A DNA stretch of 64,000 nucleotides from an uncultured bacterium (GTDB lineage Bacteria > Patescibacteriota > Minisyncoccia > UBA6257 > 2-01-FULL-56-20), in NCBI GenBank assembly GCA_963707865.1, contig OY970175.1:396305-460304 (forward strand), given 5' to 3'. The notes under the pieces are model-generated. The model saw only the letters and a program-made list of their open reading frames with translations, did not search any database and had not been told where the DNA came from. The translations under genes were made by a program, and so were the position numbers. Below are positions 4,398 through 64,000 of the stretch, one piece after another (the stretch's first letter is position 1; each line of letters opens with the position of its first letter).

Positions 4398-5984
4398 TTA
4401 AGGGCTCGTCACGGGAACGAAGGTTTCAGTGAAAGCACAGTTCACAACGGAGCTCGTGGGTACGCCATCGCTGCTGTGGCAAAAACCGTTATTGAGTGGA
4501 GTGTAGTTCGCGAGCGGAGAGATGTTTACGCCATAGACCATGTTTGGGACAATGAACACCTGCGTGCCTGACGCATTTCCGGGGAACGAGGAAATGCTCG
4601 GATTGCTCCCGATGATCGTCACTGTAAAATTGGAAGGTGATGCCGTCCCGCCCTGCGAGTTGTCAACCGCCACCGAAACGTTCAAGATGCTTGTATTGTT
4701 GGTTGGCATAACGAGAGCGGGAACCGATTGATTGCTTGATGCGGGCGAGTTCAAAAATGATTCAGCAACATCCGATGGCGTCGCAAAGGAAATTCCCGTT
4801 ACATTAATATCCAGTCCCAAGGTATCGGCCAATTCATTGATACCAACGACGTTTCCGTATTGATCCACGAGCGGCCCGCCGCTGTCTCCCGGGTTTATTA
4901 GCGCCGAGGTTTGCAACAATTCTCCAAGCTCTGAAAATCCCGCAACGGTCCTTCGGGCGGTTACAATCCCCGCCTCGACCTCAAGCGTCTGGTCGGTATC
5001 GCAGGTTCTGGGAAACCCGAAAGAAACGACGCTTGCGCCGAGCGGCAAACTTGCATCGCTTGAATTTCCGAAAGAAACTACCGGCAATCCGCCTCTCGCA
5101 ACTTGCAAAAGCGCCAAATCCCTGGTCGGATCTTCCTGCTGGATAGTGGCCGGGACCACCATGCCATCGTTGAAATAGACGTTGATGCTGCCCGCTCCGG
5201 TTATCACGTGGTCGTCCGTCAGAATGCCTCCGCCGCCTTGGACAACCATGCCGCTGCCGCACCCAAAATCAGTGCGAATCAAGACGACCGAGGGAGAAAG
5301 CTTCGCCACGATTTGCGCCGTTGTCAGGACTGTACCTGATTGGGAAGTCGTAGGAGAGCCGGGTCGTATCGTTATCGCCCCGGGGAACGTGAATTGACCG
5401 CCGTCAGGATTTTTCACGGTGACATCGTAAAGACCCGGGTTGAATCCTGACGGATATTGAGCCGAAATCAACGTTGGGGTAATGGAGCCCATTATTTGAA
5501 GGCCGGTATTTCCCAGCGTCACCTCCGCGTCACTTTCAAAGCCGGAACCGTTAATGGAGATGGTATTCTGATAACCTGCAATCATAATCGTCGGGTTTAC
5601 GAAAGTTATGACGGGAGCGTTGCTCGAGGCGTTTTGGAGCGCCGTCACTTGCTTTTGAAGCGTCGTTATTTGGGTGGCGGCGCCGGCAGAACTCTTTTTT
5701 GAGGATTGGACTGGCGCCGATTTTAACTGTTGTATTTCTGCTTCAAGCTCGTTGATACGCACATCAACCGTATCGCTTGCAGTTGTCGTGGCTGATTGAG
5801 CGGACGATGAGGATTGTATAATAAGAGATTGCTCAAATTGGTTTGCTTTTGCCTGAACCGCTGCGTTGATTTGGTTTTGTTCATAGCTCCGCAACGCGAT
5901 GACGCCACGATAACCACCATAACTAGTGGATAGGACTAGGAAAGTAATGATGACGACTTTATAGCTTTGCCAGAATGCGTTCAT
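4398..5984 (-). CDS. secreted trypsin-like (S1/HtrA-family) serine protease with N-terminal TM/coiled-coil and IPT/TIG-like domain
   Basis: It carries the GDSGGP active-site motif (LINPGDSGGPLVDQYGNVVGI). An Ig-like beta-rich segment and an N-terminal hydrophobic helix are also present. Confidence 0.65.
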   Translation of the reverse strand: MNAFWQSYKVVIITFLVLSTSYGGYRGVIALRSYEQNQINAAVQAKANQFEQSLIIQSSSSAQSATTTASDTVDVRINELEAEIQQLKSAPVQSSKKSSAGAATQITTLQKQVTALQNASSNAPVITFVNPTIMIAGYQNTISINGSGFESDAEVTLGNTGLQIMGSITPTLISAQYPSGFNPGLYDVTVKNPDGGQFTFPGAITIRPGSPTTSQSGTVLTTAQIVAKLSPSVVLIRTDFGCGSGMVVQGGGGILTDDHVITGAGSINVYFNDGMVVPATIQQEDPTRDLALLQVARGGLPVVSFGNSSDASLPLGASVVSFGFPRTCDTDQTLEVEAGIVTARRTVAGFSELGELLQTSALINPGDSGGPLVDQYGNVVGINELADTLGLDINVTGISFATPSDVAESFLNSPASSNQSVPALVMPTNNTSILNVSVAVDNSQGGTASPSNFTVTIIGSNPSISSFPGNASGTQVFIVPNMVYGVNISPLANYTPLNNGFCHSSDGVPTSSVVNCAFTETFVPVTSP

Positions 5985-6007: not shown

Positions 6008-7063
6008 TTAATAGTAATCCTCTACAGTCACTGTGTAATGAACGTTGTTTGCATCAAGATCTAGGTAATATTGACCTGGATCTTGCGAGTAAACGTAAGA
6101 AGTATTACTTGTCGGACAATTAACTATCTCCGCGAATACGTTGCCACCACCGCCGGTTGCGGAATCAACAATACCGTTAAAATTCGAATAGGAAACGCTG
6201 CTGTCCGACACGGTACAGCTATAATTTATCCGCCACTCGCTGCCCTGCATAGAAAAAGGAGGTGTTTGAATGCCGATATTATTGTTGTAAGTGTATGCCG
6301 TGTGCCAACTTTTCGGTGTTGGAGGAGGCGCTTGAGGAGTGGGAGTTTGAGTTGTCGCCGCTTGAGTCTGCGTCGAAGCAGGCTGCCTTGGCGAGGTGAT
6401 TTTAGCTGGAGCGTTTCCATCGCCGCTCGCGGGCAGATTTGCCTGAATCAACGAACAGTTTGAGAGCATCGGACTGCCCAAAATATAATTATTAATTTCG
6501 CCCTGTACCACGATCTGATCCCCATGTTGTAACGCGGATAACTGACTCTCCTGACCTTGGGCGAATGCACACTGGACGCTGTTGAAGCTATCTAGGCTCG
6601 CCTTTATAACAATGTAGGGGTTTCCAAGGATGTCTTTGTTGACCGAATCAAGTAGTCCGTTTACTTGGAGCACCGGGCCCTTATATTTGTTGTCTGCGGC
6701 CACTTGATTACTACCGTAGTCCGCGATAAGTTGCGCCGCCGAAACATCAATTGGTTGTGGGTTGGCTTGTTGACTGGACACCATCGCTGGCGTGTTGTTA
6801 TTTTGCGACCCGCCACTTACCGCGCCGATGATAATGAGAAAAGCGACGACTACGATCGCGATCGTCACAATGGGATGTCGGTTCGGCCAGCTTTTCGGCT
6901 TTACCACCGCCTCCGCGCTTTTATTTTGTTCTTCCATGAATGTTTTTGCTGATCTTCTATTTTTTTCGACTTGTTCCACTTTTTTCCTTTGCGCATACTT
7001 CTGCAATCCCTGCCCAAGAGCTATCAGAAAAATGCCGACCAAGATAATGTAAAAAAAAGTCAT
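6008..7063 (-). CDS. membrane protein, hypothetical (two TM helices, Thr/Pro/Gln-rich linker)
   Basis: Hydrophobic segments are present near the N-terminus and mid-protein. No recognisable catalytic motif was found. Confidence 0.45.
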   Translation of the reverse strand: MTFFYIILVGIFLIALGQGLQKYAQRKKVEQVEKNRRSAKTFMEEQNKSAEAVVKPKSWPNRHPIVTIAIVVVAFLIIIGAVSGGSQNNNTPAMVSSQQANPQPIDVSAAQLIADYGSNQVAADNKYKGPVLQVNGLLDSVNKDILGNPYIVIKASLDSFNSVQCAFAQGQESQLSALQHGDQIVVQGEINNYILGSPMLSNCSLIQANLPASGDGNAPAKITSPRQPASTQTQAATTQTPTPQAPPPTPKSWHTAYTYNNNIGIQTPPFSMQGSEWRINYSCTVSDSSVSYSNFNGIVDSATGGGGNVFAEIVNCPTSNTSYVYSQDPGQYYLDLDANNVHYTVTVEDYY

Positions 7064-7314
7064 TGAGTTTTGTCTCCCGCCTGTTTCTCCCGCTCCATAA
7101 TAAGCGTGATAACTTTTTCCTTTTTACCAAGGAGGGCAAGTGGCAGGAAGAGCCCGCCAAGGCAACACGTCTTACCCGCATCCCAACCTTGGTCCGTAAC
7201 CTCCTTACTCTTTATCTCCCAACCCTCATTCGCCAATTCATCAATTGCTTTTGCCATCCTCGCCCTGCCCTCAATGGTTTCTGGGAAAACGAGCGTCTTA
7301 TATTCCTTTGCCAT
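7060..7314 (-). CDS. small hypothetical protein
   Basis: An 84-aa ORF with good coding bias whose stop overlaps the start of the neighbouring gene. Confidence 0.35.
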   Translation of the reverse strand: MAKEYKTLVFPETIEGRARMAKAIDELANEGWEIKSKEVTDQGWDAGKTCCLGGLFLPLALLGKKEKVITLIMEREKQAGDKTQ

Positions 7315-8891: not shown

Positions 8892-9323
8892 GAGCCTTGC
8901 GGCTCCATAACTCTTTCGAGCTATGACCCATAGGAGGTTGCTGAACGCGGGGTTCAGTATCTCCTATGGGGTTTTGAGCCATGCCAAGCGATGTTTGGTT
9001 TAGGCTATACAATCCGATATTGAATTGTTAAGAAAACTATACCGCTTGCGACCTTTCCCGTCCAACCCTAGCTTAGATCGTAGGCGTTGCGAAGGGGGAA
9101 GTTATCAACTTGCCTCATTCGGCATTTCGTCGCCCCGTAATGAAGCACGTTCCTAACGATTCTCAAAAAACTTGACAAATGTGGTGTTATTATGTTAAAC
9201 TTACAGCGTTCCTTAACAATGGAAAATTCAAGGTTTCCAGTGAAATGAGGCGAGCGTTGGGGAAGGCAATCAATGTGGCTTCTCGAACACTCGCCTCATA
9301 ACCTGAGCGGGTAGAAATGGAGG

Positions 9324-13811: not shown

Positions 13812-13825
13812 TTTACACGAAAGCA

Positions 13826-13869
13826 ATACCGCGGAAACATCCGCGGTATTGCTTTCGTGCGGGTACCGT
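13826..13869. terminator. perfect 19-bp stem hairpin (cacgaaagcaataccgcgg aaacat ccgcggtattgctttcgtg) after the recombinase
   Basis: This inverted repeat was read directly. It is not followed by a T-run, so it may be a terminator or a recombination/attachment site. Confidence 0.4.
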
Positions 13870-22305: not shown

Positions 22306-22734
22306 ATGGGGTATAATAACGCTATGGAACTCCAGGTCGGCGTGAAAGCGCTTCTCAAAAATAAGGACGGCAAATATCTCCTTGTGCGGCGTTCGCCCAA
22401 GAAGTATCCCGAAGTCGGTGCAAAGTGGGACATCGTCGGCGGAAGGATCAATCCCGGTGCGTCGCTTCTTGATAACCTAAAAAGGGAAATTAAAGAAGAA
22501 ACGGATCTGGATCTCGCGGAAACCCCGCGACTCATAGCAGCCCAGGACATTCTACGACCTCCCGAGAAGCATATCGTGAGGTTGACTTACCTCGGGACCA
22601 TTAACGGGCAACCAAAACTTGACGATGAAAACCTGGAGTATCGCTGGTTCACGATGAACGAAATAAAGGCGCTGGACGATTTGGATTCCTACGTCAAAAA
22701 ACTGGTCAACGACGGCGAGCTTCCACTTACTTGA
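22306..22734 (+). CDS. NUDIX hydrolase
   Basis: It contains the Nudix box GGRINPGASLLDNLKREIKEETD. Confidence 0.7.
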   Translation: MGYNNAMELQVGVKALLKNKDGKYLLVRRSPKKYPEVGAKWDIVGGRINPGASLLDNLKREIKEETDLDLAETPRLIAAQDILRPPEKHIVRLTYLGTINGQPKLDDENLEYRWFTMNEIKALDDLDSYVKKLVNDGELPLT

Positions 22735-25579
22735 TTGTGATCGTTGCGAGCAGGAATGGAGTAGTGCCTAGCACTGGATCAATCGTAATCCATAACCCGT
22801 ACTTGTTTCCGATCTTTCCATTCTTGAAGGCGGACGTCAACTTGGTCGAGAGATTGTAGATGTATTGCTGACCCGTTGAATCAAAGCGGAACTGATTCAG
22901 AGTATTCGAGCCACCGCTAGATACTGCGGCGGCGGCGGTAATTCCACAGAATGTACCAGTGTCACCGGCACAAACATAAAGTTTTGCCGTCCAACCAGAA
23001 ATCGTTGAAGGGATTTTGACCGGAATAGTACTGCCGTTCTGGAAGTCCTTGTTTGAGATGGTGAGAGGAGGCTGTGCGGCAATAATCACGTCATTAACGG
23101 TCCCCGATTGGTTATTGTAGTTGCCAGTCGAACTTATAAACGTCCAAGGATCAACATACGCGCCACCCGCTGTGTGTGTAGTACCAGACAGGTTAAGGGT
23201 ATTCTGAGGGCTACCACCGACACCGATACACGAGCCGGTTGCGGTGTGAGACGTACCGTTATAAAGCACAGCGTAGCCGGTGACATGGCAGGTCGCATCG
23301 GCTTTCTTGATGTTGTCGTCAACCTTGCCGTTCGCGTCGTTATAGTTTCCTGTGACATCAGTGAATGTCCAGGCGTCGCCGGTATAGGTACCAGCATTGG
23401 TGTGAGTTGTACCGCTTAAATCAAGACCGGGTAATGCTTCACCCTTAACTCCATTTGCCGAACCATCTGCAGTGTGGGAATTGCCATCATAAGTCACATC
23501 GTAAGGAGTGACCACGATCGTCGCATCGGCTTTGCTGATATCAATGGCCACATTTCCACTGTCATCATTGTAGTTTCCGGTAACGTCTGTAAATGTCCAG
23601 TTGGCAGTCCCGCCGGGAACATCGGTGAAGGAGTCTCCGAGAACTAGGCCCGCGAGTGGTTCGCCTTTGGCGCCAGTGCAGGAGCCACTTGCTCCGTGAG
23701 CATCACCGTCATAAGTGCCGCTGTAGCCGGTGACGGTGCATGTTGCATCTGCTTTGGTGATTACAATAGATACATCGCCGCTAGCGTCGTTGTAGTTCGT
23801 TCCACCAGTAAAGGTCCAGTGAGCCGTGCCGCCAGGAACATCGGTGAAAGTAGATCCTAGATTAAGCGAACCGCTAAGGTCTTCGCCTTTTACCCCAGTT
23901 GCAGCATCAGAAGCACCGTGCGCATTGCCATCGTAGACGCCGGTGTAGCCAGTAATGTTGATCGTCGCATCGGCTTTGCTGATATCAATGGCTACACTTC
24001 CACTGTCATCATCGTAGTTTCCAGTAACGTCCGTGAATGTCCAATCCGCTGTCCCGCCGGGAACATTAGTGAAGGTTGCACCGAGGTCAAGGCCTTCGAG
24101 TGTTTCGTCTTTGGCGCCGATGCAGGAGCCTGTTGCACCATGCGGGTCACCATCATAGGTGCCGGTGTAGCCGGTGATTGTGCAGGTCGGGGCAGCCTTT
24201 GTTATGGTAATTGTTGTGCTATCACTGCTTCCATTTTGGTCGTTGTAGTTCGTCCCGCCAGAGAAAGTCCAGTGAGCAGTGCCACCGGGTACGTTCATAA
24301 AGCTGGAACCGAGGTCCACCGAAGCGCTGAGATCCGCGCCACCAACACCAAAACAGTTGCCGCTCGCGCCATGCGCATTGCCGTCATAAGCACCAGCGTA
24401 GCCAGTGATTGAAGAACAGTCTGCGGTAGCTTTGTTTATGGTGATAGAAACCGGGTCGCTCGTGGCTTGGTTGTAATTATCGTCAGCCGCTTTAGTTACG
24501 GTGATGGAACAAGTCCCCGTGCCGCTCGTGATGGTCACTGCGCCACTATTCGTGTCCACGCTGCATGCAGTGGACGCGCCCGCACTAAAGGTAACCGTAC
24601 CCGTCCCGCTGCCGCCCGACTTTCCCGCAGCGATACCTGCCTGCCCGTATGTAGCGCTTGCTGGTAGGTCGGTGGTCAATGTTGCTTGATCGGCTTTCTG
24701 TGCCGTTGTATTTTCTGTAACTTCAGGAGCGGGATTATAGCTTCCATTTCCCGCTTGGTTATAGTGAACCGTGCAAGTGCCCGTACCGCTCGTCATTGTG
24801 ATCGTGGCCGAACCGCTGCCGCTGCCGGAACAGACACCGCTCGTTGTAATAGCAACGGTCAAGCCAGAATCCGCAGTTGCCGCGACTGGAAATGTGGTGT
24901 TGTAAACCGCACTTGCCGGTGCGTGCGTAGTGACCGTGATTGTCTGATTCGCCTTCGCAATCAAATTAAACGTGGCTGTCTCAATGACAGTTTTGTTTCC
25001 CGTTAGGCCAGAAGGAGAGCAAGTTCCTGTCCCACTACAATCTCCGCCGCTCCAACCAACAAAACTTGAACCCCCATCCGCCGCAGCGGTTAAGGTTACA
25101 GAAGGGTTATTACTGTTGAATGTTTGAGTGCATGATCCAGACGTTGCCCCCGCTGCAACTATACAGTCGATGGTGGTGCCGGTGCCTGTTATGGCGCCAT
25201 TACCAGTGCCCGCTCCGTTCACTTGTAAGACAGGATGGTTTGCGTCGGTGAAGTTGCCACTCTGCGTCACGCCCGAGGTCTCGCCGGTCACAGTGTAGGG
25301 ATAGGAACCACCCGCTGTGTCATCGGTCGGGAGCGTGAACTGCCAGCTGAACGCTCCGCTCTCGTCAACAGTGGTTTCGCCCGTCACCGCGCCGTACGGC
25401 GCTTGGATGTTTATATCAACTGTTTCTCCCGCCACGTATCCGGCACCATCGCTATTGTTACCGGAAATAACGACCGTACTGCCGGGGCTGTAATCCGCCT
25501 GGTTTGTGGAAACGTATGCCAGAGCCGGCATCGTACCCGCGACCAACAAAACAAGGGAAACAATTAATGTTTTTTTCAT
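22727..25579 (-). CDS. large secreted adhesin-like protein with ~6 tandem MBG/Ig-like repeats
   Basis: It has a signal peptide and repeated ~90-aa units of the form TGYTGTYDG.aHGA.G...G.....L.LG.tFTnVPGGTA.WTFT....NYND.sG.V.I.I.KA. Confidence 0.6.
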   Translation of the reverse strand: MKKTLIVSLVLLVAGTMPALAYVSTNQADYSPGSTVVISGNNSDGAGYVAGETVDINIQAPYGAVTGETTVDESGAFSWQFTLPTDDTAGGSYPYTVTGETSGVTQSGNFTDANHPVLQVNGAGTGNGAITGTGTTIDCIVAAGATSGSCTQTFNSNNPSVTLTAAADGGSSFVGWSGGDCSGTGTCSPSGLTGNKTVIETATFNLIAKANQTITVTTHAPASAVYNTTFPVAATADSGLTVAITTSGVCSGSGSGSATITMTSGTGTCTVHYNQAGNGSYNPAPEVTENTTAQKADQATLTTDLPASATYGQAGIAAGKSGGSGTGTVTFSAGASTACSVDTNSGAVTITSGTGTCSITVTKAADDNYNQATSDPVSITINKATADCSSITGYAGAYDGNAHGASGNCFGVGGADLSASVDLGSSFMNVPGGTAHWTFSGGTNYNDQNGSSDSTTITITKAAPTCTITGYTGTYDGDPHGATGSCIGAKDETLEGLDLGATFTNVPGGTADWTFTDVTGNYDDDSGSVAIDISKADATINITGYTGVYDGNAHGASDAATGVKGEDLSGSLNLGSTFTDVPGGTAHWTFTGGTNYNDASGDVSIVITKADATCTVTGYSGTYDGDAHGASGSCTGAKGEPLAGLVLGDSFTDVPGGTANWTFTDVTGNYNDDSGNVAIDISKADATIVVTPYDVTYDGNSHTADGSANGVKGEALPGLDLSGTTHTNAGTYTGDAWTFTDVTGNYNDANGKVDDNIKKADATCHVTGYAVLYNGTSHTATGSCIGVGGSPQNTLNLSGTTHTAGGAYVDPWTFISSTGNYNNQSGTVNDVIIAAQPPLTISNKDFQNGSTIPVKIPSTISGWTAKLYVCAGDTGTFCGITAAAAVSSGGSNTLNQFRFDSTGQQYIYNLSTKLTSAFKNGKIGNKYGLWITIDPVLGTTPFLLATITIK

Positions 25580-26312: not shown

Positions 26313-26370
26313 GGCTTTTTGATGCTTCCCTATATTATAGGACGATAACAGTTCTGTAAACATGGCAGTT

Positions 26371-26476
26371 AGGTATCCCGTTGGACTTTGTTTTGGAGAG
26401 CATCCCGGAGCCACGGCGGCTTGAAGCAACCTTTAGGTTGCTTGCCGTGGCGAGGGCGAGCGGCGTTTTCCCGCCG
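26371..26476 (+). repeat. structured repeat family B, copy 1 (upstream of dnaE)
   Basis: It is about 85% identical to 61884..61988. The differences are concentrated in two stems and are compensatory. Confidence 0.6.
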
Positions 26477-26607
26477 GAGAAAACGACCGCGTCTCCATAA
26501 AGGGAAATCTGGCGAAGCGATCACTATCTTTTTAATGAATGGTTTAGTATCATGTAATAGAAATTTAATGTTCTGCATCCTCGCTTGCGGGGGCAACATC
26601 AAGAACA

Positions 26608-29600
26608 ATGAGCAATAAATTCGTCCACCTTCATACACACTCTCACTATTCCCTCCTCGACGGTCTCTCAAAGATTGACGACCTTGTAAAGCGCACAAAA
26701 GAGCTCGGCATGGATGCCGTTGCGCTCACCGACCATGGCGTGCTCTACGGTGCCGTGGAATTTTATAAATCGGCAAAAAAGAGCGGCATAAAGCCGATCC
26801 TCGGCGTGGAAACCTACGTAGCGCCCCGCGATCGATTCTCAAAAGAGGCCACCGAAAAGTATTACCACCTTGTCCTGCTCGCCGAAAACCAAACAGGGTG
26901 GAAAAATTTGATCAAGCTCGTTTCCAAGGCTCATTTGGAAGGTTTTTACTATCGCCCGCGCGTGGACAAAGATCTCCTGCACACGCACCACGAAGGAATC
27001 ATCGCGCTCTCGGCCTGTCTCGGCGGCGAGATCGGGCAAGCGCTTTTCGCCGGGCGACTCGACGAAGCAAAGCGGATCGCGCAGGACTATGAGGCGATCT
27101 TCGGCAAGGGAAATTATTTCTTGGAAATCCAAAAACACCCGCACATTCCCGAGTCGGAAAAGATAGAAGAAGGACTCATTGCACTTTCAAGAGAAACGGA
27201 CATCCCGCTCGTCGCCACCCAAGACAGCCACTATCTCCGCCCGGAGGACAACGAATACCACGACGTGCTCCTTGCCGTGCAAACCGGCAATAAATTGGCG
27301 GATGACGACCGCATGACCATGAAAATGGACGACTTCTCCCTGCCCTCGCCGGAAGCGATGGCGGAAAAATTCGCTGCGATGCCGGGCGGTACCGAAGCGC
27401 TTGAACGCACCGCAGAGATCGCGTCGCGATGCAACGTGGAGCTTGAATTGGGGAAAGTGCTCCTCCCCAGCTTCCCGAAGCCGGATGGGAAAACGGCCAG
27501 CGGCTACCTTCGCGAATTGATTGAGGAACGCTTGCAAAAAAAATTCCCGTCTGAGGCGGACACGAAGGAAGTGCGCGATCGCCTGGAATACGAATTGGGC
27601 GTCATTGAAAAAACGGGTTTTGCGAATTATTTTTTGATCGTCCAAGACCTCATCACGTGGGCCAAGGCGCACGGCATCGCCGTGGGACCTGGCAGAGGCT
27701 CGGCCGCTGGCAGCTTGGTCTCTTATGTCTTGGACATCACCGACCTTAATCCCCTCACCTACGGATTGCTCTTTGAACGGTTCCTGAATCCCGAACGTAT
27801 CCAAATGCCGGACATTGACATTGACTTTGCGGACGCGCGGCGGGACGAAGTGCTTGCCTACGCGCGCGAGAAGTACGGCGAGGACCGCGTAGCACGCATC
27901 ATCACATTCGGAACGATGGCGGCACGCGCGGCGATCCGCGATGCCGGCCGCGCCATGGGTTACTCCTATGCCTTCTGCGACCAGATCGCGAAACTGATCC
28001 CTTTCAATCCTACGCAGGGCATGAAGGAAGGATGGCTTGATGAATGCCTGGCACGGGTACAGGAATTGAAGGCGCTCTACGATACCAATCCCGAAGCAAA
28101 AAAACTGATCGACACCGCGCGCCATCTTGAGGGCGTCGCACGGCACGCGTCGGTCCACGCCTGCGGCACCGTGATCGCGAAAGAACCGCTTATGGAACGG
28201 GTGCCGTTACAGTTCGCCCCGCAGGAAAAAAACATCATTATTACCCAGTTTGAGATGCATGCAATCGAGGATCTCGGTCTTTTGAAAATCGATCTTCTTG
28301 GATTGAAAAACCTCACCATCATTGAAGATGCGATCCGCCTCGTAAAAGAACTGCGCGGTGAAACAGTAAATATTTCTCAAATACCGCTTGACGACAAGAA
28401 AACCTTTGCGCTGCTTCAGAAGGCCGATACGACCGGCGTGTTTCAATTTGAATCAAGTGGTATGCGACGTTACATGAAAGAAATCGGCCCTACGGTGTTG
28501 GAAGATCTCATTGCGTTGGTAGCGCTCTTCCGTCCAGGACCCATGGAGCTTATTCCTTCCTTCATCAAACGGAAGCACGGAGAAGAAAAAATCGCCTACC
28601 TGCATCCCAAGCTTGAACCCATCCTCAAGAACACCTACGGCATCGGCGTCTATCAAGAGCAAATGATGCAGATCGCCCGCGACCTTGCAGGCTACACACT
28701 CCCCGAAGCCGACACGTTGCGCAAGGCGATCGGCAAAAAAATAAAGTCGCTCTTGGACGAACAGGGCGCAAAACTCGTAAAAGGGATGCTGAAGAACGGT
28801 ATCCCCGAGAAGACGGCGAAAGCGATCTGGGAACTCTTCCCGCCATTCGCACGCTATGGCTTCAACCGGAGCCATGCAGCGTGCTATGCGCTCATCGGCT
28901 ACCAAACGGCATATCTAAAGGCGCACTATCCGGAAGAATTTACGGCAGCGCTTTTGAATGCCGAGGTGAGCGATATTGAGCGCATTTCGTTCTTCATCCA
29001 GGAAGCAAAGCAATCGGGCATTGATATTTTGCCGCCTGACATCAATAAGAGTTTCATGAGCTTCACGCCGGAAGGGGAAAAGATCCGTTTCGGGCTTGAA
29101 GCGGTAAAGAACGTCGGCTCTGAAATCACGAGGGCAATCATTGAGGAACGCACGCGCCGCGGGCCGTTCAAAAATTTTGAAGACGTCCTTATGCGCATCC
29201 AACATAAAGACCTGAATAAAAAATCTCTGGAAAGCCTTGTGAAAGCGGGCGCGTTTGACTCCCTTGGCATTGAGCGCAACCAGGCGCTCGCGAACATGGA
29301 CGATATTTTGCGTTTCGCGAATGCCGCAAGGAAGATGGGCAATCAAAACAGCGGCGGCTCGCTCTTTGGCGATACTATAGGAACGGCGGCGCTCAAATTG
29401 AAACCGGCCCCGCCCGCAACGAACGCCGAGAGGCTTGCGTGGGAAAAAGAGCTCATCGGCTTTTATCTTTCCGAGCATCCGCTCACGGCGCACGCGGAAA
29501 AACTGAAGGCCGCGGGGGTAAAACCGATCGCCGAACTGATAGCCATCAAAAACGAACGGCTCATCGTACGCACCGCGGGCGTCATCACGAAACTACGCAA

Positions 29601-32282: not shown

Positions 32283-32520
32283 GCGCACAGGCCTGGATTC
32301 GAACGGAGGAATAAGCGTCCCTTTCCACTTTTGGGAAATCTAGCGGAGTGGCGAGGAAAATCAACGGGGCATAAGCTGCCTGCCCGCCTTTGCGAACCGT
32401 GCGGAGGCCGAGCTAAAAATCCGCGAGCGAAAAGAAAATCCGCCGGGTGCCCCCGCCGAAGGCGAGAGGGTGGCAGATTTTCGTTGCGAGCGGGTTCCGA
32501 AAAAGCGGAAGGGGTGCTTA
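32283..32520 (+). repeat. repeat family A, long copy A (head motif + core), 3' end overlaps greA stop
   Basis: It has the head motif GCGCACAGGCCTGGATTCGAAC, and its core shares the sequence cccccgccgaaggcgagagggtggca...gggttccgaaaaagcggaagggg.gcttattctatc with copies B and C. Confidence 0.65.
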
Positions 32521-36869: not shown

Positions 36870-37011
36870 AAACTATACCACAACACCGGGAGAACGGGTC
36901 TTTCGTTCTATTTAGCGCACAGGCCCGGACGATCTTCGAACAGTCCTTTCCGTGGGTATCCCAAGCTGTGAAAAGATGCCGATTTTTCATTAGGATGGTA
37001 AGATACGAAAT

Positions 37012-37580: not shown

Positions 37581-37830
37581 GTGCACGGGACAGGATTCGA
37601 ACCATAGATAGTTCAGAGTGGAAGATCTGAGAGCAAACACAAAAGAAAAGAGCGCCCTCCTCCGCTTTTGAGGAACCTAGCGGAGGCGAGGAATAAGCGC
37701 GCTCCGAGTGAGCAGAAAATTTGACGGGACCCCCGCCGAAGGCGAGAGGGTGGCAAATTTTCGTAAGCGAGCGAGGAGAGCGCCCGAGCCGAAGCGGGTT
37801 CCGAAAAAGCGGAAGGGGGCGCTTATTCTA
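37581..37830 (+). repeat. repeat family A, long copy B, 3' end overlaps secY stop
   Basis: It has the head motif GTGCACGGGACAGGATTCGAAC and a conserved 165-nt core. It ends gcgcttattctatcc, which supplies secY's final codons (IE) and stop. Confidence 0.65.
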
Positions 37831-48400: not shown

Positions 48401-48491
48401 ATCTTAAAAGGTTGGGCAAAATAGTCAAAGGTTCTTTAATAATTTTTTAATCCTGTGCACAGGCCTGGACGATTTTCGAACGATTTTAGGC

Positions 48492-48830: not shown

Positions 48831-48915
48831 ATGACTATTCTATCACAAGCTCTAAAAACAAAATCATAGCGCACCGGCCTGGACGATTTTCGAACAGTTC
48901 TGATTGTGATGCAGG

Positions 48916-49182: not shown

Positions 49183-49265
49183 CAACATAACATGCACAGG
49201 CCTGGACGATTTTCGAACGATTCTTTCTCTTTCCCAATATCTAGGGAATTGTAGTCTTTTCTAAG

Positions 49266-51348: not shown

Positions 51349-51590
51349 GTGCGCAGGCCAGGATTCGAACAACTAATCTCATTAATATAAACCGTGCCGG
51401 CAGGGGTGTTGGGGTCTCCTGTGTTTTTGTTTTCGAAGAACCTAGCGGAGGCGAGGAATCAGCGCTCTCCGAGCGAGCAGAAAATTTGACAGGACCCCCG
51501 CCGAAGGCGAGAGGGTGGCAAATTTTTGTAAGCGAGCGAGGAGAGCGCCCGAGCCGAAGCGGGTTCGAGAAAACAAAAACACAGGAGACC
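51349..51590 (+). repeat. repeat family A, long copy C (between hisG and rpsJ terminator)
   Basis: It has the head motif GTGCGCAGGCCAGGATTCGAAC and a core almost identical to copy B (cctagcggaggcgaggaat.agcgc...gggttc). Confidence 0.65.
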
Positions 51591-53283: not shown

Positions 53284-53449
53284 GCAGAGCCCATTCCAGA
53301 ACGCAGCAGCATGAGGATTATAAATCATTTTCGAGCGAGCAACGTGAATCCCGACGAAGGAATACCCTTGTGGTATTGCGAGGAGGGATTCGCGTTGCGC
53401 AGCCGAAAATGGACATAAGAGTCATACGGCTACGTTCTGGAATGGGCTC
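53284..53449 (+). ncRNA. candidate structured RNA: 18-bp outer stem enclosing nested hairpins, followed by T7 run (between rplU and tuf)
   Basis: The arm agagcccattccagaacg (53286-53303) pairs perfectly with cgttctggaatgggctct (53421-53438), and a ttttttt run follows. An inner stem pairs cgtgaatccc with gggattcgcg. Confidence 0.35.
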
Positions 53450-53760
53450 TAGACTTTTTTAACCCGAACCTCCGCATATTCCTGCCGATGTCCCTTCTTT
53501 TTGCGAAACCGCGTTTTGGAATGATACTTAAAAACGATCTTTTTTTTCTCGCGCCCCACGCCGAGCAATTCCGCTTCCACCGAAATATTCGTAAGGTAGG
53601 GAGTACCGATTTCCACACGGCCGTCCTCGGACCGCAAAAGCACCTTATCAAAAACCACGGCGCCGCCTTCGGCGCTTGTCTTTTCTATTTTTAGCTTCTC
53701 CCCGGCGGAAACTTTGTATTGCTTCCCGCCAGTTTGAATCACCGCGAAGTCCTGTGCCAT
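53449..53760 (-). CDS. rplU: 50S ribosomal protein L21
   Basis: It begins MAQDFAVIQTGGKQYKVSAGEKLKIEK. The start was trimmed from the ORF-track call. Confidence 0.85.
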   Translation of the reverse strand: MAQDFAVIQTGGKQYKVSAGEKLKIEKTSAEGGAVVFDKVLLRSEDGRVEIGTPYLTNISVEAELLGVGREKKKIVFKYHSKTRFRKKKGHRQEYAEVRVKKV

Positions 53761-61791: not shown

Positions 61792-61867
61792 CGATTAAAT
61801 TTTTCTAAACCACGCGGGTCTGGACGATTTTCGAACAGTTCTCGGACTTGGCTTTGACAAAGTAGCT

Positions 61868-62008
61868 GCGCATGAGCGTTGGTTTTTCGGAGCATCCCGG
61901 AGCCGCAACGGCTTGAGGCGACCCTCAGGTCGCCTGTTGCGGCGAGGGCGAGCGGCGTTTCCCCGCTGGAGGAAACGACCGCGTCTCCGAAAAACCAACG
62001 CTCATGCG
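61868..62008 (+). repeat. structured repeat family B, copy 2, enclosed by a 25-bp perfect outer stem, abutting fusA stop
   Basis: The core 61884..61988 matches copy 1. The outer arms are gcgcatgagcgttggtttttcggag and ctccgaaaaaccaacgctcatgcgc. Confidence 0.6.
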
Positions 62009-64000
62009 CTAGCGCTTCTTCCCCTCTATAATAAGCTGCGCCACGTTCTGCGGCGTCGGCTCATAGTGATCAAATTCCATAGTAAACGAACCACGGCCCT
62101 GTGACATTGAACGGAGCTCGGTCGCATAGCCGAACATTTCGGAAAGCGGGACTTTCGCGTCAATCACCTTCAGCCCCGGCCGGTCACCAAGCGATTCGAT
62201 GCGGCCACGCTTCGCATTCAATTGTCCGGTCACTTCGCCCAAAAAGTCCGGCGGCACAAGCACCTGCAATTTCATAATCGGTTCCAAAATCACTGGCCTC
62301 GCGCGCTTCGCGGCCTCCTGGAACGCAATGGAACCCGCGATTTTGAATGCCGCCTCCGAGGAGTCCACTTCGTGGAACGAACCGTCGTACAAAGTCACCT
62401 CAACGTCCGTCACGGGATAGTGCGCGAGAATTCCTTTGTCCAGCGCTTCCTTCACGCCCTTCTCTGTCGCCGGAATGAATTCATGAGGGATAACGCCTCC
62501 TTTGATCTCATCCAGAAACACAAAACCCGTTCCGCGCGGAAGGGGCGTCACGCGGAGCCATACATGTCCGTACTGACCGCGGCCACCGGACTGACGGATA
62601 TACTTTCCTTCCGCTTCCGCCTCGCCCATAATTGTTTCTTTGTATGCCACTTGAGGCCGGCCCACGTTCGCTTCCACGCCAAACTCCCGCTTCATGCGAT
62701 CCACAATAATCTCCAAGTGTAGCTCGCCCATGCCAGAAATGATCGTCTCGCCGGTGTCCGGATCCCCCGCCACCCGGAAAGTCGGGTCCTCCTCGGCCAA
62801 ACGGTGCAGGGCTGTGCCCATTTTTTCCTGGTCTGCCTTTGTTTTCGGTTCAATGCGGATACCGATCACGGGTTCGGGGAAAGTGATGCGCTCCAAGACG
62901 ATGGGCGTTTCTGGATCGCAAAGCGTGTCCCCTGTCGTCGTATTTTTCAAACCAACGATCGCCGCAATCTCGCCCGCATAAACCTCTTCCACCTCCTCGC
63001 GATCGTTCGCATGCATGCGGACCACGCGACCGATGCGCTCCTGGTTGTTCTTGGTGGAATTCAAAATGTACGAACCGCGCTTCAGGACGCCGGAATAGTT
63101 TCTGAAATATGCGAGCGTGCCTACGTAAGGGTCGGTCGCGATTTTGAACGCGAGTGCCGAGAACGGCTCTTCGTCTTTTGGATAGCGCTCCACCTCTGCA
63201 CCCGTCTTTAGGTCGTGGCCCTTCACAGGTGGCAGGTCTGTCGGCGCCGGCAAGTATTCAACCACCGCATCCAGCACGAACTGCACCCCCTTGTTCTTCA
63301 ATGCCGAGCCGCAGAAGACCGGTACGATCTTGTTCGCGATCACCGCTTTGCGCAGCACGCGGCGAAGCTCTTCAATACCGATCTCCTTTCCGTCCAGATA
63401 TGCTGCCATCGCTTCGTCGTCGTTTTCAGCAATTTTTTCAATCAGCTCGTGGCGGCGCTTTGCAATGTCTGCCTTCATATCGTCCGGGATCGTGATTTCA
63501 ACTATCTTCTCACCATGCTCGCCCTCAGAGGTATATGCCTTGTTTGAAAGGAGGTCTACGATCCCCTTAAAATTTTCTTCCAAACCGATTGGCAGCTGCA
63601 CCGGGATGGCATGCGGCGTGAGCCGGTCAAGAATTGATTGAAAACTCCCCATAAAGTTCGCGCCCATCCGATCGAGTTTATTGATAAAGCAGATGCGCGG
63701 CACGTTGTATTCGTCCGCATAGCGCCAATTCGTCTCCGACTGCGGCTCAACGCCCGCGACACCGTCAAACACGACGACTGCGCCGTCGAGAACCCTAAGC
63801 GACCGCTTCACCTCTACCGTAAAGTCAATGTGTCCCGGCGTATCAATAAGGTTGATGCGGTGCTCATACTTTTTGTCGTGGTTGCGGTAGGTCGGCGTCC
63901 AGAACGCGGTCGTCGCGGCGGACGTGATCGTAATGCCGCGCTCGCGCTCCTGTTCCATCCAGTCCATCACGGTATCCCCCGTGTGCACCTCGCCGATCTT
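62009..64000 (-). CDS. fusA: elongation factor G (N-terminus beyond window end)
   Basis: It contains [17 protein letters not shown] and conserved domain IV-V motifs. The frame is open at position 64000. Confidence 0.9.

Follow-up and report, generated by a model that had tools for sequence, protein, structure and literature searches.

REPs are transcribed with the upstream mRNA, often from positions just behind stop codons; they guard this mRNA against 3' exonucleases and can serve as punctuation within operons. The REP/BIME elements of Enterobacteria and Pseudomonas, which are associated with RAYT, are dispersed extragenic palindromes that vary in presence and absence among relatives, and in these respects they resemble the repeat described here. 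The Correia elements (CREE/NEMIS) of Neisseria and the ERIC elements are about 100 to 150 bp within long inverted repeats, and they are co-transcribed and form long RNA hairpins (PMC2649163; PMC2229807). RNase III binds or cuts the hairpins of CREE, and these hairpins alter how neighboring genes are expressed (PMC2649163; PMC2229807). For the CPR/Patescibacteria, next to nothing has been established about the ending, processing, and stabilization of transcripts, and our literature search linking Patescibacteria with dispersed structured repeats of such a type found nothing.

The DNA analyzed here was a 64-kb stretch (the window) of an 898,885-bp contig, which searches with FusA and DnaE placed in the Minisyncoccia (Parcubacteria, CPR); the nearest genome was the MAG SPRUCE 501, with 95% protein identity. 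The original prediction for the window described two look-alike copies of a structured repeat, which we call family B, with about 85% identity and mostly compensatory differences. Both copies were confirmed, and the identity of their cores was 84% over 100 aligned columns. The helices and the conserved 3' half that had been quoted for the two copies were correct, and 12 of the 16 differences between the copies formed six double changes (13 of the 16 were in paired columns). Three of the double changes were in gccacggc/gccgtggc of copy 1 versus gccgcaac/gttgcggc of copy 2, two were in agcaacc/ggttgct versus ggcgacc/ggtcgcc, and the sixth was a U-A to C-G change in the 3' hairpin. In the case of copy 1, the element was present but its placement was not accurate: the core occupied positions 26395-26496 rather than 26371-26476, and the predicted end at 26476 was 20 nt short of the sequence that had itself been quoted.

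The core folded into a three-way junction, with P1 as the closing helix, P2 (CCC/GGG) around a long bipartite hairpin (P2a/P2b), and P3 with two single-base bulges. In the copy 1 core (26395..26496, minus strand when the sense is taken from the other sites), P1 was GGAG(AG)/CTCC, P2 paired CCC at 26404-26406 with GGG at 26454-26456 and enclosed the P2a/P2b hairpin, P2a was formed by 26410-26418 and 26443-26451, P2b was formed by 26425-26431 and 26436-26442 around a loop at 26432-26435, and the P3 hairpin spanned 26460-26490. No upstream gene reads into this copy, and a search for a small minus-strand ORF ending at a TAG just before it found none. In the copy 2 core (61889..61988, minus strand), the corresponding helices were P1 (61889-61892/61985-61988), P2 (61896-61898/61946-61948), P2a (61902-61910/61935-61943), P2b (61917-61923/61928-61934, with its loop at 61924-61927), and P3 (61952-61982).

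Models built from the family scored the copy 1 core at 118 to 126 bits and the copy 2 core at 120 to 129 bits (E of about 1e-23 to 1e-25). The full copy 2 hairpin had folding energies of -101.0 and -101.8 kcal/mol on the two strands, with a z score of about -10 to -11 relative to dinucleotide shuffles. These scores indicated that the copies were not chance occurrences. A covariance-model search with the filters off found no third copy in the 64-kb window. Protein-coding readings of the ORFs at 61795-61998, 26388-26618, and 26369-26698 were ruled out by the compensatory, non-codon-wise changes, and a 19-nt deletion in a copy 2 orthologue and a P2 that was about 30 nt shorter in another copy also argued against coding. 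Because spurious ORFs of 39 to 109 aa overlap family B copies, annotations of such regions should be treated with caution.

Scanning with sequence patterns and searching the fetched loci with covariance models yielded a set of ten copies at eight sites. Window copy 1 had an orthologue at L084:933-1075 (L084:950-1056 when compared with the core), and window copy 2 had an orthologue at L133:12104-12227. The remaining copies were at L133:8594-8737 (tRNA-Ala), L130:about 4918-5068 (rpoD), L134:1921-2085 (a 379-aa ORF), L137:12109-12222 (fusA), L147:15198-15347 (greA), and L149:20804-20947 (secY). A loose two-anchor pattern scan of genome contigs returned at least 119 stretches; among the matches listed, only L084 was true, and the other 118 listed were high-GC noise or came from a motif of a radical-SAM gene (NPEP...GEGE). 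The scan of metagenome contigs gave 11 matches, three of which were true (L120, L127, and L130); L120 and L127 were from the same species as L084, and L130 was new. A degenerate-pattern scan of viral contigs found no family B member. The searched loci of five relatives (L138, L144, L145, L148, and L150) contained no copy, and L146 contained only a weak look-alike, which suggested that family B was confined to a narrow clade and was patchy within it.

A search of both copies against Rfam had been named beforehand as a check, and family B matched no Rfam family. When the whole window was searched at gathering thresholds, the only matches were LOOT and four tRNAs, and permissive scans of the two copies gave at most 15.4 bits versus cut-offs of 31 to 80 bits. 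The ALIL, cobalamin, and xrRNA matches at 11 to 15 bits were rejected as noise. The LOOT RNA (RF03000) at window positions 8892-9006 on the minus strand was a full-length match, with 85.6 bits versus a gathering threshold of 46.4 bits.

Copy 2 had been described as enclosed by an additional perfect 25-bp outer stem at 61868..62008. The stem was real, with arms at 61868-61892 and 61985-62009, but it was not an extra of copy 2, as every family B copy had one. Thus, the element had been under-measured: the full element was about 120 to 175 nt, and the core was about 100 nt. The fusA-side arm of copy 2 (61985..62009, minus strand; the 5' arm in the fusA transcript) was 25 nt and 100% complementary to the distal arm (61868..61892, minus strand; the 3' arm in the fusA transcript), which was not followed by a U-tract. 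The stem took in the P1 helix GGAG/CTCC, and its last base, position 62009, was the G of the fusA TAG stop codon (62009-62011). In copy 1, the arm on the dnaE side (26497..26519, minus strand; ATAAAGGGAAATCTGGCGAAGCG) was retained, and 21 of its 23 positions matched the L084 arm ATAAAGGTAAATCTGGCGAAACG. The L084 arm itself pairs with CGTTTCGCTAGATTCACCTTTAT, also over 21 of 23 positions. Alignment with L084 placed the decayed partner arm of copy 1 at 26371..26394 (minus strand), where pairing extended over only about 5 nt, and the folding energy of copy 1 was -61 kcal/mol versus -94.5 kcal/mol for L084.

Across the family, the outer duplex was a copy-specific, perfect or near-perfect extension of P1 of 16 to 32 bp, and a duplex of that length is long enough for RNase III. 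Arm pairing was 25/25 in window copy 2, 26/26 in the L133 tRNA-Ala copy, 23/23 in L147, 16/16 in L137, 18/18 plus an 8-bp extension in L149, 21/23 in L084, and about 30/32 in L134. The arms at the eight sites were unrelated to each other (GCGCATGAGCGTTGG.., CGTTTCGCTAGATTCAC.., AGGAATAACGAATACTC.., GAATACGCACCGTC.., GGCAAGCGCCAGGCCGC.., CCATCCGAATGT.., GGCTTCTCCGCTGC.., and GGCGCTGC-CATTTTGCTCTTAGC), and the sole feature that recurred among them was a stretch of about 6 nt beside P1 that was T-rich on the 5' side and A-rich on the 3' side. The element may have acquired such copy-specific, perfect arms by inserting into the loops of long terminator stems that were already present, or the arms may be products of templated palindrome extension.

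The positions of the outer stems were closely tied to gene ends. At six distinct sites (fusA, rpoD, greA, secY, tRNA-Ala, and one ORF), the stem started about 0 to 3 nt past the stop codon or tRNA end. Specifically, it started at the G of the TAG stop of fusA in the window and in L133, 2 to 3 nt past the TAA stop of fusA in L137, 1 to 4 nt past the TAA stop of rpoD in L130, at the terminal A of the CCA end of tRNA-Ala in L133, directly past the TAA stop of the 379-aa ORF in L134, directly past the TAG stop of greA in L147, and at the G of the TAG stop of secY in L149. None of the stems entered a coding sequence or tRNA body, as expected of a constraint acting on the transcript. The transcript strand at the gene-end sites was the complement of the strand on which the repeat was originally described, and the orientation relative to the upstream gene was the same at all six distinct sites (two-sided P of about 0.03). 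The sequence beyond the element was promoter-like, for the next gene; in L149, the copy was followed by A-TTTTTT and then by a consensus TTGACA-17-TATAAT promoter. At L130:5066-5100, past the rpoD copy, GTGTTCGAATCCCACCTAGTGCA resembled the T-arm and acceptor 3' half of a tRNA. ARAGORN identified no tRNA there, and GTGTTCGAATCCCACCTAGTGCA may be a TTCGAA-type -35 region that is followed by TATAAT.

The gene-linked orientation, the stems that stopped at gene ends, the terminator position, and the U-rich tails in L149 and L137 argued for action at the RNA level, which we infer for family B. The reading that we favor, at a probability of roughly 55%, is that family B is a dispersed, REP/Correia-like RNA structure at gene ends that serves in 3'-end formation, stability, or processing. 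According to this proposal, the element would act in RNA as a highly stable hairpin at the 3' end, where it would terminate or punctuate the upstream transcript and block 3' exonucleases, and the long perfect outer duplex is predicted to be a natural substrate of RNase III. The element would have spread by duplication or insertion between gene-end sites, and single copies would then have been kept by host selection. A U-rich tail was found after the L137 copy, and a T6 run was found 8 nt from the L133 copy; U-tracts were absent from most copies, including window copy 2, L130, L134, and L084. In addition, the A/T segment beside P1, which was T-rich on the 5' side and A-rich on the 3' side, had the wrong polarity for an intrinsic terminator. 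Given the reversed polarity and the general lack of U-tracts, classical termination is at most a putative function of the element. A consensus terminator scan of the 55- to 64-kb region did not report the full copy 2 hairpin; the lone entry there (62016-61997) was a 6-bp sub-hairpin formed by the end of fusA and the start of the 5' arm.

The sole exception to the gene-end rule was the site shared by copy 1 and L084, which was located between the divergently transcribed tRNA-Thr and dnaE genes. This site had divergent promoters and nothing that needed termination, yet the core was conserved. Because copy 1 was on the same strand as dnaE, 112 nt before the start of this gene, and had a conserved structure, it could be a cis-regulatory leader or riboswitch of the downstream gene, and a cis-regulatory RNA had been among the candidates originally offered. 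However, all of the other sites were behind genes, where the opposite strand was transcribed, and their downstream genes were unrelated. Furthermore, the tRNA-Thr/dnaE spacers of two relatives, L146 and L147, whose DnaE proteins were 88% and 84% identical, were empty sites that retained both promoters and the dnaE leader hairpin. Together with the missing Rfam match, the opposite strand at six gene-end sites and the empty sites in relatives contradicted a regulatory role at dnaE, and we consider a leader or riboswitch function highly improbable. The dnaE leader hairpin itself (CCTCGC-TTGC-GrGGG, window positions ~26587-26601) was about 10 nt before the start codon and was conserved in four species (window, L084, L146, and L147), including those that had no element in this spacer.

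Empty sites were not limited to dnaE. The 3' side of tRNA-Ala was empty of family B in L134, L137, and L138. Behind fusA, the spacer in L134 was a bare 71 nt with no family B copy, and L138 (which was syntenic with the window), L144, and L145 had canonical terminators with perfect 13- to 20-bp stems and T-runs located 13 to 22 nt behind the gene. At the 3' ends of greA and secY, the window carried copies of a different repeat, family A, at positions where L147 (greA) and L149 (secY) carried family B. The block inserted in the tRNA-Thr/dnaE spacer in the window and L084 consisted of both arms plus the core. The empty sites and the other hairpins at the same places indicated that family B was insertional and interchangeable with gene-end hairpins, and that it was no dnaE regulator. 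Dispersed copies with insertion polymorphism, a hallmark of MITEs, were therefore a property of family B, with ten copies at eight sites.

Next to this pattern of insertion, the evidence for selection on the structure was strong. In the ten-copy alignment, which was fitted to the covariance model, 96.8% of the cells were standard pairs, changes on both sides were found in 27 of 36 pairs, and 50 further pair types were present. In the shuffle control, none of 500 shuffles reached any of these measures, and slid controls were 38 to 55% paired. A four-sequence MAFFT alignment agreed, with 7 double changes and 0 single-sided changes. The P2 variants across copies, for example, were CCC/GGG, CUC/GAG, and CGC/GCG. 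The search for further copies that had been suggested as a check thus supplied eight more copies in related Minisyncoccia, whose stem changes were compensatory and strengthened the case for selection on structure. As judged from these sequence comparisons, the family B structure is under selection.

The covariation was almost purely from one Watson-Crick pair to another, which fit a constraint at the DNA level equally well. Predicted G.U counts were 24 per strand and both strands folded equally well, so no strand could be called; the single changes that gave G.U on the gene-sense strand only were few (the L133 fusA copy twice, L134, and L149). Accordingly, family B could instead be a non-autonomous mobile element that acts as DNA and folds as single strands, like REP/RAYT or IS200/IS605-derived palindromes, with any effect on RNA being incidental. 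In such a case, a trans-acting enzyme would recognize the hairpin, and the orientation would depend on which way replication runs, not on the upstream gene. In agreement with this idea, both window copies had the same orientation on a stretch of constant (monotonic) GC-skew sign, so a replication-linked rule also fit, and it did so at 8/8 sites, copy 1 included. Presence/absence polymorphism at three orthologous sites, the existence of a Y1_Tnp gene in one relative (L144), the symmetry of the two strands noted above, and one-strand bulges and conserved unpaired nucleotides that resembled those of protein-recognized single-stranded DNA hairpins pointed in the same direction. However, an orientation set by replication leaves the stem starts at 0 to 3 nt and the avoidance of genes unaccounted for. 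The carrier loci also lacked the expected enzyme: one relative without family B, L144, had a gene for a 226-aa Y1_Tnp protein (PF01797, IS200/RAYT-type) next to rpsL (L144:7646-8326, minus strand), but tblastn with this protein found no Y1 transposase or RAYT in the 64-kb window or the element-bearing loci. Finally, shared terminal repeats were lacking, and the flanks of complete copies showed no consistent target-site duplication or common target motif; a 4-nt TAGC at copy 2 was compatible with chance.

The histories of individual copies provided a further argument against a purely selfish element. Identity at fourfold-degenerate sites between the window genome and SPRUCE 501 was 77% in dnaE and 66% in fusA. 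In contrast, the cores of copy 1 and its orthologue were identical at 95 of 100 positions (P of 9e-7 to 4e-12 versus fourfold sites), and the five differences comprised one compensatory pair, two loop changes, and one change at a P1 register shift. An identity of 95% versus 66 to 77% indicated that the host maintains the copies; this level of conservation, like that of first and second codon positions, is unexpected for a selfish relic. The copy 2 orthologue was behind fusA of a species whose FusA was 95% identical. It carried a 19-nt slippage deletion, and the changes outside the deletion were two C-to-T changes in P2a, one loop change, and a 1-nt deletion; in the flank, identity collapsed right at the stem boundary. 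Decay was therefore seen both in this deletion and in the left arm of copy 1. The two copies within the window genome were 16% different, with compensatory changes, which suggested that they were old and individually maintained, unlike the products of a recent selfish burst. Taking both sides together, we regard a mobile DNA hairpin with incidental RNA effects as rather unlikely.

The conserved nucleotides raised yet another possibility. In L134, L137, L147, and L149, nearly all of the helix sequences were different and the junction and bulge nucleotides were kept. On the strand used in the original prediction, the conserved positions were C-N-C-GGA-G, CUUG, CGAG-N-GCG, CCGC-N-GGA, and bulged A residues. 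This conservation of the core and junction is beyond what the need for a stable hairpin accounts for. It is what one might see if the core were a functional small RNA, either protein-binding or trans-acting, that is cut by RNase III from the 3' ends of housekeeping transcripts, with the copies being paralogous. Such an RNA would fit the length of the outer duplex, the purifying selection on sequence at the copy 1 site, where there was no upstream gene to terminate, and the long retention of paralogues with 84% identity and compensatory changes. On the other hand, family B had no promoter of its own, no conserved flanks, and no known partner gene. Copies were also lost or truncated without replacement, as in the L133 deletion, the short P2 in L137, and the empty sites, and the places where family B is found can be taken by another hairpin family. 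For these reasons, a small-RNA function seemed quite unlikely.

Family A, the repeat noted above behind greA and secY, was a second structured repeat that had an architecture and placement like those of family B. Its copies in the window were at 32373-32514, 37666-37808, and 51413-51590, behind the stops of greA (32518-32520), secY (37823), and rpsJ (51620), and another copy was at L084:~7060-7232. The rpsJ copy had a perfect 22-bp outer stem and a 196-nt fold of -90 kcal/mol (z of -9), and the greA copy had an orthologous copy in SPRUCE 501. Families A and B had the short GC-rich words CCCCGCCGRAGG and GGCGAGRG in common. A third giant imperfect hairpin (window 53286-53450, 165 nt) was unrelated in sequence to either family; its 177-nt fold was -93 kcal/mol (z of -12.7), and its arm started at the stop of rplU (L21, 53449-53874, minus strand), upstream of tuf. 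The presence of family A and the rplU hairpin in the window suggested that family B was one case of a wider habit of this genome.

A broader and more speculative idea, which we think is probably wrong, is that families A and B and the other giant hairpins are host-kept RNA punctuation modules, in which RNase III cleavage is coupled to the ribosome, the excised core is functional, and the arms are templated. The idea draws on the outer duplex that begins exactly at the stop codon, because a terminating ribosome would then melt the base of the duplex. If it were true, the modules would couple translation to RNase III cleavage and mRNA fate, the core with its three-way junction, once excised, would serve as a discrete RNA that binds protein or acts in trans, and the perfect arms would arise by templated palindrome extension (intrastrand template switching) with no transposase. 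Copy-specific, perfect arms that end at the stop codon could be a sign of translation-coupled processing or of some mechanism by which palindromes form. Family B could also be curated in the manner of Rfam as a candidate new RNA motif, and its presence at the ends of core genes in place of ordinary terminators offers a handle on the gene-end biology of streamlined, uncultivated bacteria.

Several other repeats and hairpins were observed in the window and the fetched loci. A 30-nt motif, TGCACAGGCCTGGACGATTTTCGAACGATT (minus-strand ..TGTTCGAAAATCGTCCAGnCC..), occurred five times in the window, at 36916-36945, 48456-48485, 48870-48899, 49193-49222, and 61811-61840, and was also found at L133:~12690. 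The copy at 61811-61840 was located past family B copy 2 and before the next gene. Four of the five (those at 36916, 48456, 48870, and 61811) were about 20 to 85 nt upstream of the starts of small minus-strand genes, and the motif resembles a shared promoter or operator. About 70 nt downstream of tRNA-Glu (minus strand), window positions 13816-13859 formed a 20-bp hairpin with perfect pairing and a loop of 4 nt. An array of short hairpins with a repeated GCAGTGAGAyTCCCCT unit (L133:8370-8590) was directly downstream of the tRNA-Ala family B copy. Direct repeats of about 246 nt and 102 nt, which were 73 to 81% identical and spaced by about 450 nt (window 23516-24340), were inside a 950-aa ORF (22727-25579) and probably reflect a repeated protein domain.

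How does family B compare with the described systems? The REP/MITE-like label was biologically the closest of the three candidates in the original prediction, but formal membership failed because there were no shared terminal repeats, target duplications, or GTAG-type REP unit. In MITEs, the terminal inverted repeats have the same sequence in all copies, whereas the arms of family B differed from site to site. REPs are imperfect palindromes of about 20 to 40 nt with a GTAG-type head, and they occur as hundreds of near-identical copies tied to a RAYT gene. In contrast, family B elements measured 120 to 175 nt, lacked such a head, and had a core built on a three-way junction; the copies were few and old, with copy-specific arms. 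Family B did resemble REP/BIME elements in being extragenic and close behind stop codons, although its co-transcription is inferred from position. Every copy of CREE ends in the same 26-nt repeats, and CREE also have a TA target duplication, an IHF site, and ends that form promoters; family B had arms that differed per copy and no TA duplication, and its interior rather than its ends was conserved.

Like intrinsic terminators, family B elements were located between a stop codon and the next promoter, in two cases (L149 and L137) with U-rich tails. However, intrinsic terminators at different sites are not homologous, their loops are small, and a U-tract must follow the stem directly, whereas family B had a homologous, structured interior of 100 nt and in most copies no U-tract. 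The attC sites of integrons also conserve structure more than sequence, contain bulged bases, have a fixed orientation directly behind an ORF, and depend for their function on a folded single strand. They differ in their R''/R' core sites (RYYYAAC...GTTRRRY), which the family B arms did not contain in the required order; the neighbors of family B were housekeeping genes (fusA, rpoD, greA, and secY) and tRNA genes rather than cassettes, and there was no integrase and no array. Hammerhead or other ribozymes, retron msr/msd, 6S, Y RNA, SRP, and group II domain 5 were rejected because the junction sequences did not fit, and no reverse transcriptase, partner gene, or Rfam match was found for these candidates. 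Family B is thus an undescribed element that belongs to none of the known families compared (MITE, REP, and Correia) and is not in Rfam. If the gene-end RNA reading is correct, its working mode would be akin to that of REP/BIME or Correia-type elements, with a core that is more elaborate and better conserved.
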